A DNA stretch of 58,651 nt from a bacterium (GTDB lineage Bacteria; Patescibacteriota; Minisyncoccia; JAUYLV01): contig JAUSGO010000002.1 of assembly GCA_030649025.1 (NCBI GenBank), positions 1 to 58,651 of the forward strand, read 5' to 3'. The number at the start of each line of letters is the position of its first letter. The first letter of the stretch is position 1. Shown piece after piece: positions 9,940-51,539 of this stretch. Made by a program: the position numbers and the translations under genes. The notes beneath the pieces are model-generated. The model saw only the letters and a list, made by a program, of their open reading frames with translations. It was not told the DNA's origin and did no database searches.

Positions 9940-9944
9940 AATCT

Positions 9945-10056
9945 CTAAGGTCACGAATGATGCGAATAGTACGCGAATAACGCGAATTCACGAATAAGAC
10001 TGCTAAGCATTCGTGAATCTGTACATTCGTGTAGTATCTGTAAATTCGTGATTATT
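9945..10056 (-). repeat. CACGAAT/ATTCGTG hairpin element, copy A (hydrolase-ferredoxin spacer)
   Basis: The reverse complement matches copy B (28563-28686) with 3/45 and 4/45 arm mismatches by manual alignment. The loop differs. Confidence 0.85.
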
Positions 10057-27122: not shown

Positions 27123-28421
27123 ATGGCTAGGATACGTTTGAGGCAGGATACGAGAGATTTAGATGAAGCATTCGCCAAACTCGAAGAGGCTAAAAAGCAA
27201 GAGAAGGCCGAAGAAGAACAGCGCTTCAAGGGAATCACCGTTAAGTTTGTAGAAGCGGTGGAGGCGACGCTTCGGAGACTGGCGAAATTGTCCGAAAGAG
27301 TAGCGCACGAGACTCTTGCGGAATTCAAGAAGATCGCCGATGTCAACGCTATTCCTCAGGAGAATGTGAGGAATTTTCTCGCGCGAGCGGAGGGTCAGGA
27401 AATATTCGGGTTTGAGCTGACCTTTACGGACAAATCGCGCTACCTTCTTTTCTTTCAGCACTGTCGGAATTTTGAAGAACGCCACCCGTTCTCCGCAAAA
27501 ATGATCCAGTATCCGCGCCAGGAACGCGGAACGGAAGGGCATGTCGCCATCAACGCATCACGGGTTTTCTGCTACGGCAATTCACAGAGGGGTATTATCC
27601 GCGTTCTTACGGACGCCTCTTATGGTGAACTTTCGCGCGTGGTCGAAGTCGTGGTGCAGATACGTCTTAAGGGCATCCAGGAAGAAAATTACCTGCGCCA
27701 GGCTCTGCAGATGATCCAGAGAGAAGGGTATTTGGTCGATCCGAGAGAGCGGAAGGGAAAATCGCTGCCCCGATACGATGACCGTGATTTTTTTCAGCGT
27801 AGCGCCTGGGATGACAGCCACGGCGCGGATTACATGCTTCCGTACTGCTCGAAAGACGGCCAGTATCTCGTCATGAAACTTCAATTGAAATCCAATCCCG
27901 ACGACGTCAAAGTCCATGCCAAGCGTTTCGCGACCATTCCGTGCATTGTAAGTCCTCGGGGGCTTTGCAGGAGATATCCAAGGCCCGTTGAAAAAATAAG
28001 TGTCTTGAAGGAGATGACCTTGCTTGCCATGATTGCGAACGCCCAAGGCACCGTTCTTCAGCTTTCCGATGACCCGGTTGCATTGGTCCTGGGCGCTCTT
28101 CTGAAGAAGAACGTTATTTCTCAGGCCGAGAGAGAGGTTTACGAGTGCCGTATGCGCGACCATCATTGGGGGCATAAGCGGTATCTTTTGTACCATATGC
28201 ATTTGTCCAATGGAGAGAAGATCAGCTTTGCGGCCTTTGCAGAAGATTGGAAGGGTCGGCATCGTCTTTTCAATCGCGATCATCCGAATGTGCCATATGT
28301 AGTAATGCAGCCCCTGGAGAGCGAAGAAGCTATCGCGCAGGACCTGGAAGACCAGATCCTACACATGCTTCCTCTCGAGGCCGTACAATCCCAAGAAAAC
28401 ACGTCCCACGTTTCTTCATGA
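27123..28421 (+). CDS. hypothetical protein, no recognisable domain
   Basis: 432-aa ORF with a GGAGG RBS, protein-like composition, and an N-terminal charged coiled-coil-like segment. Confidence 0.6.
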   Translation: MARIRLRQDTRDLDEAFAKLEEAKKQEKAEEEQRFKGITVKFVEAVEATLRRLAKLSERVAHETLAEFKKIADVNAIPQENVRNFLARAEGQEIFGFELTFTDKSRYLLFFQHCRNFEERHPFSAKMIQYPRQERGTEGHVAINASRVFCYGNSQRGIIRVLTDASYGELSRVVEVVVQIRLKGIQEENYLRQALQMIQREGYLVDPRERKGKSLPRYDDRDFFQRSAWDDSHGADYMLPYCSKDGQYLVMKLQLKSNPDDVKVHAKRFATIPCIVSPRGLCRRYPRPVEKISVLKEMTLLAMIANAQGTVLQLSDDPVALVLGALLKKNVISQAEREVYECRMRDHHWGHKRYLLYHMHLSNGEKISFAAFAEDWKGRHRLFNRDHPNVPYVVMQPLESEEAIAQDLEDQILHMLPLEAVQSQENTSHVSS

Positions 28422-28496
28422 GCGTGGGATTTTTTATACCCATATTTTCCACAAAATTTGCACAAATTCTTCCTGGGACGCTTTGTTAAATAGCTG

Positions 28497-28524
28497 TTGA
28501 CAATATCTTCACCATCCTTATAAT
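28497..28524 (+). promoter_or_regulatory. consensus sigma70-type promoter of groESL
   Basis: TTGACA-16 nt-TATAAT. Confidence 0.75.
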
Positions 28525-28535
28525 GCCTTTAGAGA

Positions 28536-28562
28536 TTAGCAGTTAAAGGTCTAGAGTGCTAA
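28536..28562 (+). promoter_or_regulatory. CIRCE operator (HrcA binding site)
   Basis: TTAGCAGTT-N9-GAGTGCTAA versus the consensus TTAGCACTC-N9-GAGTGCTAA, immediately downstream of the promoter. Confidence 0.85.
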
Positions 28563-28686
28563 ATTAGCAATATCACGAATTTACAGATATCACACGAATA
28601 TACAGATTCACGAATGCATGGAGGGGTTACAGTCATTCGTGAATTCGCGTTATTCGCGTGACATTCGTATCATTCGTGATTAGCAG
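28563..28686 (+). repeat. CACGAAT/ATTCGTG hairpin element, copy B (groESL 5' leader)
   Basis: cacgaat x3 (28574, 28593, 28609), then attcgtg/attcgcg x5. The arms are near-identical to the reverse complement of 9945-10056. Bounded by attagca on both sides. Confidence 0.85.
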
Positions 28687-28692
28687 AGCTTT

Positions 28693-28983
28693 ATGCAATT
28701 AAAACCCTTACGCGATTATGTGGTCATCGAGCCCGTCAAGGCAGAGGAGCGCACGAAAAGCGGCATTGTTCTACCCGACACGGCCGACAAGGAAAAGCCG
28801 GAACAGGGCAAGGTGATTGCCGTAGGTTCGGGAAAGGTAACGGACAGCGGACAGAAGATTGCGCCGCAGGTGAAGGTGGGCGACACGGTGCTGTTCACTA
28901 AGTACGGTCCCAACGAGGTCAAGATCGATAAAAAAGAGTACCTCATTTGCAAGGAGGAAGATATTTTAGCAATACTGGAATAA
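28693..28983 (+). CDS. groES: co-chaperonin GroES
   Basis: [24 protein letters not shown].. 96 aa. Confidence 0.95.
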
Positions 28984-29183
28984 CAATGGTGGGCTCCCCC
29001 GCCCAAATTTTGCAAGTAGCGCGTGCGGCAGGCCGCTTCGCGCACCAAGGGATGTGCCTATCCGGCACCCGCGGCCTGCAAGAATTTGTCGGAACAGTCT
29101 TACCAAAAGAAAATTAATGGGTGTATCGGGAGGCAAAATTTGAGCGGGATGCTCATTTTTGCACCTACTCGCTATACTCGTAG

Positions 29184-30848
<1,665 letters not shown>

Positions 30849-45524: not shown

Positions 45525-45621
45525 CCTAATTTCTAATTATCCTAAGTGCTCTAAACAAATCCCAAAGCCCCAATTCCCAAATTGTTTAGGTCAATTAGGT
45601 CAATTAGATCAATTAGAAACT
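45525..45621. repeat. composite junction palindrome (scpA-scpB spacer)
   Basis: Left cctaatt tctaatt words, inner stem ctaaacaa/ttgtttag, right tandem (g/a)tcaattag x3. Confidence 0.75.
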
Positions 45622-46194
45622 GTGTCCAAGTCATCTTCCATTATCGAATCCCTTCTTTTTATCGCAGGGGAGCCGGTAAAAATAAAAAAACTTGCGCGTG
45701 CATCCGGTGCCTCCGAGAGTGAGGCGCGCACTGCATTAGAGGAACTTGCCTCCGTACACGAAGATCGGCGTGGGCTTCGGGTTCTTATAAAAGATGACGA
45801 AGTGGAACTGGTTACCCATCCGGACAATGCCGGAATAGTTTCGGAATACCTTAAAAGCGGCATGGAAGAGGATCTGACCGATGCGACCTCGGAGACGCTC
45901 GCCATCGTGGCATATAAAGGCCCTATTGCGCGCGCGGCCATTGACGATATCCGCGGCGTAAATTCTCAATATACCCTTCGCACGCTTCTGGTCCGGGGAC
46001 TCGTGGAGCGTATTTTGCACCCCGAAGATGCCCGCACGTATCTCTACCGCATTTCACTTGATTTTCTTAAAAAACTCGGGTTGAAATCCGCACAAGACTT
46101 GCATGAATTTACTCCGCTTTCACAGGCAAAACTTACTCCACCAGAAGAAACAAACACAAAAACCGAGCCAGACGCGACAAAGCCAGAAATCTAG
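45622..46194 (+). CDS. scpB: segregation and condensation protein B
   Basis: IIESLLFIAGEPVKIKKLA... GTG start. Confidence 0.88.
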   Translation: MSKSSSIIESLLFIAGEPVKIKKLARASGASESEARTALEELASVHEDRRGLRVLIKDDEVELVTHPDNAGIVSEYLKSGMEEDLTDATSETLAIVAYKGPIARAAIDDIRGVNSQYTLRTLLVRGLVERILHPEDARTYLYRISLDFLKKLGLKSAQDLHEFTPLSQAKLTPPEETNTKTEPDATKPEI

Positions 46195-48882: not shown

Positions 48883-50277
48883 ATGCAAGTCCAGCACCCA
48901 AAATTTAATGGTAAAAAAATAACCGTGATGGGATTAGGACTTCATGGCGGAGGAGTCGGCACTGCGAAATTTCTTGTGCGGCAGGGCGCAAAGGTTACGG
49001 TAACCGATCTTAAAACCAAGAAAGAGCTTGCATCGTCTTTAAAAAAATTAAAGGGATTGCCGATTCGTTTTGTTTTGGGGAAACACGACTCCAGAGATTT
49101 TAAAAATGCCGATATGGTGGTGTATAACCCCGGCGTGCGGACAAAATTCCTGCGACTCGAAGATTCACCGCATTTGGCTACCGCGATGCGGCATCATGTT
49201 CCGCTTGAAACCGATATCGGAATTTTTTTTCAACTTGTTCCGAGAGACCAAATCATCGGTATTACAGGCTCAAAAGGAAAATCGACAACTGCGACCCTCA
49301 TAGCCCACATATTGAAACAGAAGTATCCGCACACGCTTCTTGCGGGCAACATCCGAACATCGGTTCTCGATATACTTCCCAAGATCAAGCCCAGCGTACC
49401 AATTATTCTGGAGCTTTCAAATTGGCAGCTTGAGGGACTTGCCGCAAATCACATAAGCCCTCACGTTGCGGTTGTAACGAATATATTACACGAACATCTC
49501 AATACCTATCGAAGCTTTCATGCGTATACAGAGGTAAAAAAGCACATCCTGCGCTTCCAGAAAAAAAATGACGTTGCAGTGCTTAACAAAGACCTAAAAA
49601 AGTTCAAAGAGTTCCAGGGGTCTTCTCGTAAAGCTCGACGCATATGGTTTTCCAAGCGCACAACCCCCGCACTCTACGCCGATGTTTTTAAATTGCCGGG
49701 ATTTCATAATCGCGCGAATCTTGCCTCGGCGCTTGTAGTTGCCAAAATTTACCGTGTCGGACCAAAGAAGATTCGAAGGGCGCTTGAGACCTTCCGGGGA
49801 TTGGAAGGAAGAATTGAAACTGTGAAGAAGGTCGGCGGGGTAACATTCGTCAATGATACGACTGCAACCATGCCGGACGCGGTTATTGCCGCACTTCGGA
49901 CCTTTCCGGACCCCAGAAACCTGATACTTATTGCCGGAGGCGTAGACAAGAAATTTAATTTTCGACCGCTGGGGGAGATTCTTAAAATCTGCTCCATAAA
50001 AGCCATTGTGTTCCTTCCGGGAACGGCAACCGTCAAGATGCTCTCGGTGGCAAAAAAATACGTGATACCGCAAACCAAAATTCGGGAAGCGGGCTCGATG
50101 AAAGAAGCCGTGAATATTGCATGGCGTTACGCCGAAAAAGGCGATACGATACTCTTATCCCCGGGTGCTGCAAGTTTTAATCTTTTCCAGAACGAATTTG
50201 ACAGAGGAGAACAGTTTGTGAGGGAAGTTAAGAAGCTGAAGCCAATTTATCAAATCCAAATGCCAAAATCCAAATGA
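48883..50277 (+). CDS. murD: UDP-N-acetylmuramoylalanine--D-glutamate ligase
   Basis: ITVMGLGLHGGG and GITGSKGKSTT. The last ~9 codons lie in the repeat arm. Confidence 0.92.
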   Translation: MQVQHPKFNGKKITVMGLGLHGGGVGTAKFLVRQGAKVTVTDLKTKKELASSLKKLKGLPIRFVLGKHDSRDFKNADMVVYNPGVRTKFLRLEDSPHLATAMRHHVPLETDIGIFFQLVPRDQIIGITGSKGKSTTATLIAHILKQKYPHTLLAGNIRTSVLDILPKIKPSVPIILELSNWQLEGLAANHISPHVAVVTNILHEHLNTYRSFHAYTEVKKHILRFQKKNDVAVLNKDLKKFKEFQGSSRKARRIWFSKRTTPALYADVFKLPGFHNRANLASALVVAKIYRVGPKKIRRALETFRGLEGRIETVKKVGGVTFVNDTTATMPDAVIAALRTFPDPRNLILIAGGVDKKFNFRPLGEILKICSIKAIVFLPGTATVKMLSVAKKYVIPQTKIREAGSMKEAVNIAWRYAEKGDTILLSPGAASFNLFQNEFDRGEQFVREVKKLKPIYQIQMPKSK

Positions 50278-50355
50278 CAAATCAATGACTAAAATCCAAA
50301 ATCCAAATTTTTGACATTTGGGCTTTGGGTTTGATTTGACATTTGAGCTTTGACA
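50251..50355. repeat. junction palindrome built from atccaaa / tttgg(g) and tgacaaa / tttgaca words (murD-ftsW)
   Basis: The left arm has (a)tccaaa x5. The central stem is ccaaat-ttttgac-atttgg. The right arm has tttggg/tttgaca words. Confidence 0.75.
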
Positions 50356-50367
50356 TTCTGGTTTTCA

Positions 50368-51465: not shown

Positions 51466-51539
51466 AGCAAAAGACACATAACAAAAAGCAATAAGACCCT
51501 GTTATTGCTGTTTGCTATCTGTTATCTGCTGTCTGCAAG
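51466..51539. repeat. junction palindrome (ftsW-murG spacer)
   Basis: GCAATAA-gaccctg-TTATTGC with outer ataaca / tgttat words. Confidence 0.65.

Follow-up and report, generated by a model that had tools for sequence, protein, structure and literature searches.

A CACGAAT heptamer-array palindrome in the groES leader of a Patescibacteria-like genome and its relation to a repeat family linked to GxxExxY genes

Described repeat systems and the groES leader element

The intervening sequences in 23S rRNA genes of Coxiella, Leptospira and Salmonella are small selfish inserts with complementary ends that form a long stem (PMC4990558). They may carry one small open reading frame of unknown function, are found sporadically among related organisms and are horizontally acquired; they are tolerated since the stem folds out of the host RNA (PMC4990558). 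The element analyzed here, an imperfect palindrome made of arrays of the heptamer CACGAAT and located in front of groES (termed copy B), resembles these inserts in several of these properties. The intervening sequences however are situated in rRNA helices 25 and 45 and their excision by RNase III has been shown experimentally (PMC4990558), whereas the present element has an mRNA leader or an intercistronic gap as its host, has heptamer arrays as its ends, and is known here from sequence.

A second point of comparison is provided by the REP/REPIN repeats and their RAYT genes. These are short, palindromic, gene-less repeats present in many intergenic copies and, like the present element, they can serve as hairpins in mRNA. 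They are presumably mobilized in trans by a gene that is present once and has repeats on both sides; repeats around a gene are also seen in the cassette family described below. The architecture differs, as the arms of the present element consist of three to five phased heptamers and REP/REPIN sequences have one stem of 20–40 bp. In addition, RAYT is a Y1 HUH transposase, whereas the cassette gene belongs to the PD-(D/E)XK group (GxxExxY) and is positioned inside the palindrome loop. Membership in the REP/REPIN-RAYT group was rejected; there is no GTAG/CGTC head of a G+C-rich palindrome, and the termini are CAATAT...GATTAGCA.

Ssn GIY-YIG nucleases and their NTS/SRM repeats also combine a small nuclease gene with its own flanking hairpin repeat, and the gene co-occurs with hundreds of repeat copies across phyla (PMC11893778). 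The NTS/SRM repeat however is a single hairpin of ~30 nt (CGTCATTCCCGCG...GCGGGAATC) and not a heptamer array, and the nuclease fold is a different one. An identity with this hairpin was rejected because both architecture and sequence differ. According to the abstract describing them, the TAACTGA repeats of Beggiatoaceae and cyanobacteria are heptamers located in intergenic leaders and shared by distant lineages, and a post-transcriptional role has been proposed (PMC4679880). Unlike the present element, they are presented there as direct repeats and not as hairpin-forming mirror arrays, and the abstract names no nuclease gene. The TIGR-Tas guide arrays consist of tandem units with box C/box D motifs and dual spacers, adjoined by a Tas (Nop-domain) gene (PMC12045711). 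The present element is a single palindrome rather than a tandem array and displays no box C/D pattern, and was not assigned to this group.

Copy B is located in a stretch of 58,651 nt (termed the window, here meaning the whole of the DNA that was analyzed). The terminator of the upstream gene is at positions 28403–28430. It is followed by the groESL promoter, a sigma-70-type sequence (TTGACA-16 nt-TATAAT, positions 28497–28524, + strand) that matches the consensus at 12 of 12 positions, and by the CIRCE operator TTAGCAGTTAAAGGTCTAGAGTGCTAA (positions 28536–28562, + strand), which is conserved in the relatives L166, L167, L168 and L170. Copy B begins at the next nucleotide and encompasses positions 28563–28685 (+ strand, 123 nt, ATTAGCA termini included). 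The groES (Cpn10) open reading frame is at positions 28693–28983 (+ strand; Pfam PF00166, E = 2e-34). The order in the leader is therefore perfect promoter, CIRCE, copy B and groES ATG.

The original prediction had placed an imperfect palindrome between CIRCE and groES at positions 28563–28686. A reading of the sequence confirms the palindrome and its start, and its true end is one base earlier. The left arm (positions 28572–28617, + strand) reads CACGAAT/TACAGAT/CACGAAT/TACAGAT/CACGAAT and has five units when both TACAGAT heptamers are counted. Its three CACGAAT boxes start at 28574, 28593 and 28609, with the predicted spacings of 19 and 16 nt. The loop (positions 28618–28634, + strand) is about 19 nt. 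The right arm (positions 28635–28680, + strand) displays ATTCGTG at 28635, ATTCGCG at 28643 and again at 28652, ATTCGTA at 28663 and ATTCGTG at 28672; the predicted number of five ATTCG(T/C)G boxes thus holds, with the fourth box deviating from that motif. ATTAGCA bounds both ends, at 28563–28569 and 28679–28685, and the groES ATG lies 7 nt past the second one, also as predicted. No Shine-Dalgarno sequence is found between the copy B hairpin and the ATG.

With the perfect promoter upstream and CIRCE following it, copy B almost certainly belongs to the groESL 5′ UTR, in agreement with the prediction. Transcription from this promoter would include copy B, which in the groESL mRNA would form an extended, interrupted hairpin.

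Two further copies had been proposed in the window. Copy A (positions 9940–10051, − strand) fills the whole spacer between the stop codon of an alpha/beta-hydrolase gene (10054–10052) and the ATG of a downstream ferredoxin gene (9939), both on the minus strand. The left arm of copy B is 93% complementary to positions 10007–10052 and the right arm is 91% complementary to positions 9951–9995; read on the minus strand (9951–10052), the arms of the two copies show identities of 93% over 46 nt and 91% over 45 nt. The loops, 13 nt in copy A and 19 nt in copy B, are unrelated in sequence. Similar arms and unrelated loops are thus both borne out. Copies A and B each have five units per arm with a unit spacing of 8–11 nt, which is tighter than the usual 10–11 nt and three units of the family described below. 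The window contains 15 CACGAAT words, 10 of them inside copies A and B. A profile built from the two copies gave no other match in the window and did not recover copy C, and the pattern peculiar to them (CAGATTCACGAAT..ATTCGTGAATTCG) had no match among the metagenome contigs.

Copy C (positions 2136–2225, + strand) is shorter and degenerate and fills the spacer between nuoI and nuoJ. It is a genuine hairpin, and its kinship to copy B is weak. Aligned with copy B, it scores a z of ~5.6 when read in the sense direction and ~4.6 in reverse, values so close that the orientation of copy C is poorly defined. The proposal that all three copies read in the same direction on their mRNAs stands for copies A and B and is no more than probable for copy C. 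The termini CAATAT...GATTAGCA are common to copies C and B.

There is no direct repeat flanking copy A (the flanks are AATAA and CCTTAG), and a target-site duplication was rejected for this copy; for copy B the situation is ambiguous. The ATTAGCA pair of copy B is, judging from the sequence, probably part of the element itself, because ATTAGCA also ends copy C. The element does not qualify as a classical MITE. Inverted arms are present, but copy A has no flanking direct repeat and no transposase gene is found beside the arrays.

Copy number and turnover of elements at gene junctions

The locus occurs in only three runs of a groundwater metagenome, all of them DNA runs. Contigs from the source metagenome were aligned to positions 28500–28760 at a likeness of at least 80%. 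The depth is ~10 in the flanks and 175–250 in the arms (summed over 34 contigs, ~20 times the flank value), a summed depth that does not equal a copy number. Most of the arm contigs listed have a depth of 5–13, similar to that of this organism. In the loop the depth is 45–66 (~5 times the flank value) with many substitutions and indels, and the flanks of the contigs diverge. This does show that copy B is a repeat present in multiple copies, whose arms are conserved and whose loops vary freely. Such loops would be in keeping with a cassette that has its cargo at this position. The public groES contig breaks off inside the left arm of copy B.

The hydrolase-ferredoxin junction was compared in relatives found by way of the reductase that adjoins the ferredoxin (75%–79% identity). 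The C-terminus of the hydrolase (...KQIx*) and the N-terminus of the ferredoxin (MAKITKLKVDR) are conserved in all relatives compared. The gap between them is 7 nt in L175, 112 nt in the window, where it is copy A, and ~200 nt in L174, where it is a different structured element. Thus the same stop/start junction holds two unrelated elements, and neither is present in L175. The L174 insert (positions 1468–1668) displays 75% identity over 207 nt to the groES-groEL spacer of the window (positions 28984–29189), a match that includes the last bases before the ATG. This spacer is unusually long (206 nt) and appears as a copy of another structured element. On the basis of this alignment, the spacer and the L174 insert are taken to represent a second family of insertable elements, with insertion precisely between stop and start codon.

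A comparable turnover is seen in the groES leader. By its GroEL the organism groups with Patescibacteria (CPR); the protein is 85%–95% identical to that of a small clade of relatives and ~70% identical to that of other matches. Four relatives (GroEL identity 85%–89%) have kept the promoter and CIRCE, and each shows an unrelated periodic hairpin of 77–128 nt before groES. The units between CIRCE and ATG are of the CATGAAG type in L166, the TCAAAA type in L167, AGCTTCTT in L168 and GCAAATA in L170. These leader hairpins are dispersed repeats themselves. The L170 hairpin recurs in its own groES-groEL gap (100% identity over 61 nt) and also matches the ferredoxin-reductase gap of L174, and the L168 unit is present in the groES-groEL gap of L166. 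A Sungbacteria genome also has a structured CIRCE-to-ATG spacer; in L171, a more distant CPR locus, this spacer is 51 nt and unstructured. That a hairpin is kept between CIRCE and ATG in all five close lineages could reflect selection for a hairpin, or it could be a landing-pad effect.

Periodic hairpins of other unit families are found in the window as well, in three intercistronic gaps at positions 45532–45608 (CTAAT/ATTAG-type), 50252–50364 (CAAAT/ATTTG-type) and 51466–51530 (GCAAATA-type). The GCAAATA-unit family fills the L170 groES leader, the L170 groES-groEL gap and the L174 ferredoxin-reductase gap. A BLAST comparison of window positions 51466–51530 with the L170 and L174 GCAAATA copies gave no match.

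The CACGAAT mirror-array family and GxxExxY genes

The pattern CACGAAT-N(5–20)-CACGAAT-N(5–35)-ATTCGTG was used as a reference to scan other genomes. It matches 44 viral contigs and at least 120 contigs of species-representative genomes. The host taxa listed include Flavobacterium and Ferruginibacter (Bacteroidota), Chloroflexota, Planctomycetota, Verrucomicrobiota, Acidobacteriota, Sungbacteria and Saccharibacteria (CPR), among others. Nearly all listed matches are mirror arrays with at least three CACGAAT units, in a 10–11-nt period, around a loop, and the outer ends of the listed arrays are often complementary (nCCACGAAT...ATTCGTGGn). Open frames of 120 codons or more run through 44% of the arrays, compared with 90% of sites drawn at random from these loci. 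Thus the arrays are enriched in non-coding gaps.

Defined operationally, the family has two inverted arrays of at least three phased heptamers of the CAC(G/A)(A/G)AT type with a loop between them. Copies A and B show this layout. They also fill non-coding gaps next to a start codon, copy A from stop codon to ATG, at a junction that is empty in L175, and copy B ending 7 nt before an ATG. A full-text literature search for CACGAAT yielded primer lists only, and this palindrome family is apparently undescribed in the searchable literature.

When open reading frames beside 130 arrays were clustered by BLAST, there was no universal neighbor, and no transposase gene adjoined any array. A search for widely separated half-arrays as full-length elements yielded mostly larger loops without genes. 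A small number of arrays do have a gene, and L139 can be used to show the relationship. Its sequence is composed of (CACGAAT)x3, then an open reading frame from ATG to stop, then (ATTCGTG)x3, so that the gene is in the loop. In L131, L105 and L086 a small gene is directly against CACGAAT arrays. All four genes match Pfam PF13366 (PDDEXK_3) with E = 1e-26 to 1e-40, and each of the three genes scanned against NCBIfam (L139, L131 and L104) matches TIGR04256, “GxxExxY protein”. An HMM built from the four genes detected three more, in L104 and L101. The same gene-in-loop layout is found with CGCAGAT units in L104 and with CACGGAT units in L177. Among the ~160 loci selected by the pattern, only 6 have a GxxExxY gene adjoining the array, and there is none in the 58.6-kb window.

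A reciprocal comparison started from the protein. Eighty GxxExxY loci were picked by protein alone, 75 of them with both flanks. In 45 of the 75, the complementarity between the 5′ and 3′ flanks exceeds that of all shuffles; the median score is 19, and that of shuffles is 10.3. Repeated 7-mers in these flanks include CACGGAT, CACAGAT, CGCAGAT and CGCGGAT, and the TACAGAT unit found in copies A and B resembles CACAGAT. Arrays of this kind and GxxExxY genes are thus linked. The GxxExxY genes are co-oriented with their neighbors (39:5 upstream and 40:4 downstream), that is, about 90% are in the sense direction within operons. In viral contigs GxxExxY was found at only two loci, with variant arrays flanking L177 clearly and L178 less clearly.

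GxxExxY proteins have been assigned to the PD-(D/E)XK group as a family of unknown function with multiple transfers (PMC3424549). A search by sequence gave no solved structure of a GxxExxY relative. GxxExxY is mentioned in passing in the searchable literature, where no paper was found that links PF13366/TIGR04256 to heptamer arrays.

Some loci show more elaborate arrangements. Positions 125–544 of L126 contain four CACGAAT-type palindromes in tandem within 420 nt, separated by ~50-nt spacers, an array of arrays. In L047, L050 and L124 (Flavobacterium/Chitinophagaceae), the spacers that contain CACGAAT arrays also have GCCACAGAT and CACGGAT units mixed in, along with long stretches of T, and several heptamer dialects coexist in one genome in these Bacteroidota.

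RNA folding, alternative readings and a proposed origin

The sense RNA of copy B gives a folding energy of −47.6 kcal/mol (z = −6.0; none of 200 shuffles was as good), and that of copy A gives −31.8 kcal/mol (z = −3.1). The predicted stem of copy B spans positions 28572–28680 with ~43 pairs (−44 to −48 kcal/mol). In each copy the more stable fold is that of the antisense strand, at −53.9 kcal/mol (mRNA strand, −47.6 kcal/mol) in copy B and −43.1 kcal/mol (mRNA strand, −31.8 kcal/mol) in copy A; G:U pairs are more numerous on the antisense strand. Among the remaining periodic hairpins in the window, the sense strand has no consistent advantage. At the gathering score, Rfam detects only three tRNAs in the window and no family matches the element, for which the highest-scoring models, those of plant and insect microRNAs, stay far below threshold. 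An RNA thermometer of the ROSE or fourU type was rejected, because the groES AUG (28693) is 12 nt outside the stem, which ends at 28680, and is not sequestered, and a Shine-Dalgarno sequence that could be hidden is absent.

A word of the type GGAG, GAGG or AGGA is found at −20 to −4 in 13 of the 63 roughly called genes of the window. No Shine-Dalgarno-type word of this kind precedes the genes that follow a hairpin element directly (groES, ferredoxin, nuoJ and those at 45622 and 51540).

It was previously argued that an orientation locked to transcription speaks for an RNA-level function and against a MITE. The part of this proposal concerning an inserted repeat element is supported. The step to RNA function is not supported; the orientation is based on two good copies and a weak one, folding favors the antisense strand in copies A and B, and the site of copy A is empty in L175. 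Moreover, the same phased CACGAAT arrays bracket GxxExxY genes, an agreement with the ends of putative mobile elements that counts against the argument. The shared sense orientation of the gene-less copies needs no RNA function, because it could follow from the co-orientation of GxxExxY cassettes with their operons.

Copy B could nevertheless be a cis-acting RNA module selected in the mRNA, serving as a 5′ stabilizer, as an RNase III site that parts CIRCE from the coding part, or as an aid to translation where no Shine-Dalgarno sequence is present; in a weaker form, any long hairpin would do, whatever its sequence. The position in the 5′ UTR behind a perfect promoter, the sense orientation common to copies A and B and probably C, the structured spacers before groES in all four close relatives and the Sungbacteria genome, and the scarcity of Shine-Dalgarno words in the window and their absence behind such hairpins are consistent with this, as is the cutting of stem-bounded 23S rRNA intervening sequences by RNase III (PMC4990558). 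Such a module is nonetheless unlikely, since unrelated repeats replace the sequence at the groES site in each relative, the more distant L171 does with an unstructured spacer, and the same element stands in an unrelated operon at a junction that is empty in L175. The better antisense folding, the lack of a consistent sense advantage in the other periodic hairpins and the free AUG also argue against it, and the family extends to many phyla and phages, beside unrelated genes. An RNA side effect, with the copy B hairpin acting as an RNase III substrate or 5′ stabilizer, is plausible by analogy with those intervening sequences.

Two further explanations address the DNA itself. Repeated 7-nt words about one helical turn apart are typical of protein-binding arrays, and a set of them just downstream of promoter and CIRCE might be an array of operators bound by a transcription factor or nucleoid protein of the host, acting as a roadblock and a second layer of control on groESL. 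This is quite improbable, as copies A and C are at intercistronic junctions without a promoter, the arms amount to ~20 copies per genome-equivalent by summed depth and have free loops, the same word is found across phyla and phages beside unrelated genes, and the bracketed gene has a nuclease fold and is not a regulator. Alternatively, short AT-rich spacers could themselves give rise to palindromes through slippage and fold-back synthesis, and gene conversion would homogenize them, with nothing mobile and no dedicated protein. Many different unit sequences do occur at the same kind of site and copy A lacks a target-site duplication. Yet arms that are 91%–93% identical at unlinked loci 18 kb apart, the recurrence of one heptamer word in distant phyla and phage contigs, and the tight linkage of the arrays to one protein family make this the least probable of the explanations considered, and a highly improbable one.

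It is likely instead that copy B is a gene-less copy of the heptamer-array cassette family linked to GxxExxY genes, carried as a passenger and transcribed in the groES 5′ UTR. The groES messenger probably tolerates it as a passenger, and a role as a dedicated chaperone switch is improbable. For groESL this is a deflationary result; the hairpin would not be a new heat-shock control device, and in annotation such hairpins should not be labelled riboswitches or operators.

Origin from a GxxExxY cassette suggests the following sequence of events. The arms of a cassette are rows of phased CAC(G/A)(A/G)AT heptamers, and full-length members carry in the loop the gene for GxxExxY, a small protein (Pfam PF13366, NCBIfam TIGR04256) with a predicted PD-(D/E)XK nuclease fold. 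This protein may read the heptamers, one unit per 8–11 nt, and drive copying or replacement at the DNA level, and gene-less copies may arise through loss of the loop cargo. In a compact Patescibacteria-like genome, copies would land or survive only in short non-coding gaps, the permissive ones being stop-to-start junctions inside operons and a few real 5′ leaders. Copy B may thus have been inserted or swapped into the groES leader after CIRCE, copy A between hydrolase and ferredoxin, and copy C between nuoI and nuoJ. The insertion of copy B could be tolerated because its hairpin leaves the AUG free. As an RNA, the hairpin would be neutral or at most a processing or stabilizing site, by comparison with the 23S rRNA intervening sequences.

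A broader proposal is more tentative and must be regarded as doubtful. The heptamer arrays together with the ~125-residue GxxExxY PD-(D/E)XK protein may form a phylum-spanning, as yet undescribed class of minimal mobile cassette, an “mRNA intervening sequence” that colonizes stop-start junctions and leaders of expressed operons in sense orientation and is harmless by virtue of its stem, because the folded ends would take the cassette out of the host RNA. Rival families would then swap at landing pads of CPR genomes, such as the CIRCE-to-groES and groES-to-groEL gaps.

Flavobacterium, Chloroflexota, CPR bacteria and phages all have mirror arrays of one 7-nt word, and the arrays bracket members of PF13366/TIGR04256, a large orphan family of proteins for which no function is listed. 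If the GxxExxY protein reads and moves the arrays, this would represent a new minimal mobile element and a new family of sequence-reading nucleases. The CPR loci provide a clean natural experiment, as the groES gaps and the hydrolase-ferredoxin junction are empty in close relatives, or filled by different families. This turnover suggests that stop-start junctions are the only places where selfish DNA is tolerated in ultra-small genomes.

Two minor observations concern sequence words in and near the copies. TTAGCAG is present only three times in the window, in the left half of CIRCE (28536–28542), at the right end of copy B (28680–28686) and in the loop of copy A (10000–10006, − strand). The copy A loop sequence GCTTAGCAGTCTT and the CIRCE left half of the relatives, TTAGCAGTCTA, match at 10 of 11 positions, and the related ATTAGCA is present in copy C (2213–2219). 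A word like half of CIRCE travels with these elements; under the broader, doubtful proposal, its presence in the copy B end and the copy A loop could be the trace of a capture at CIRCE, or of homing to it.

Within nuoJ, 250 nt downstream of copy C, (CGAATTA) is repeated 4.3 times at positions 2471–2500, a contiguous run with an ACGAAT core that encodes ...GELRITNYELRK... The run stays in frame because it is 30 nt long, and could be a half-array that was absorbed into the coding region.
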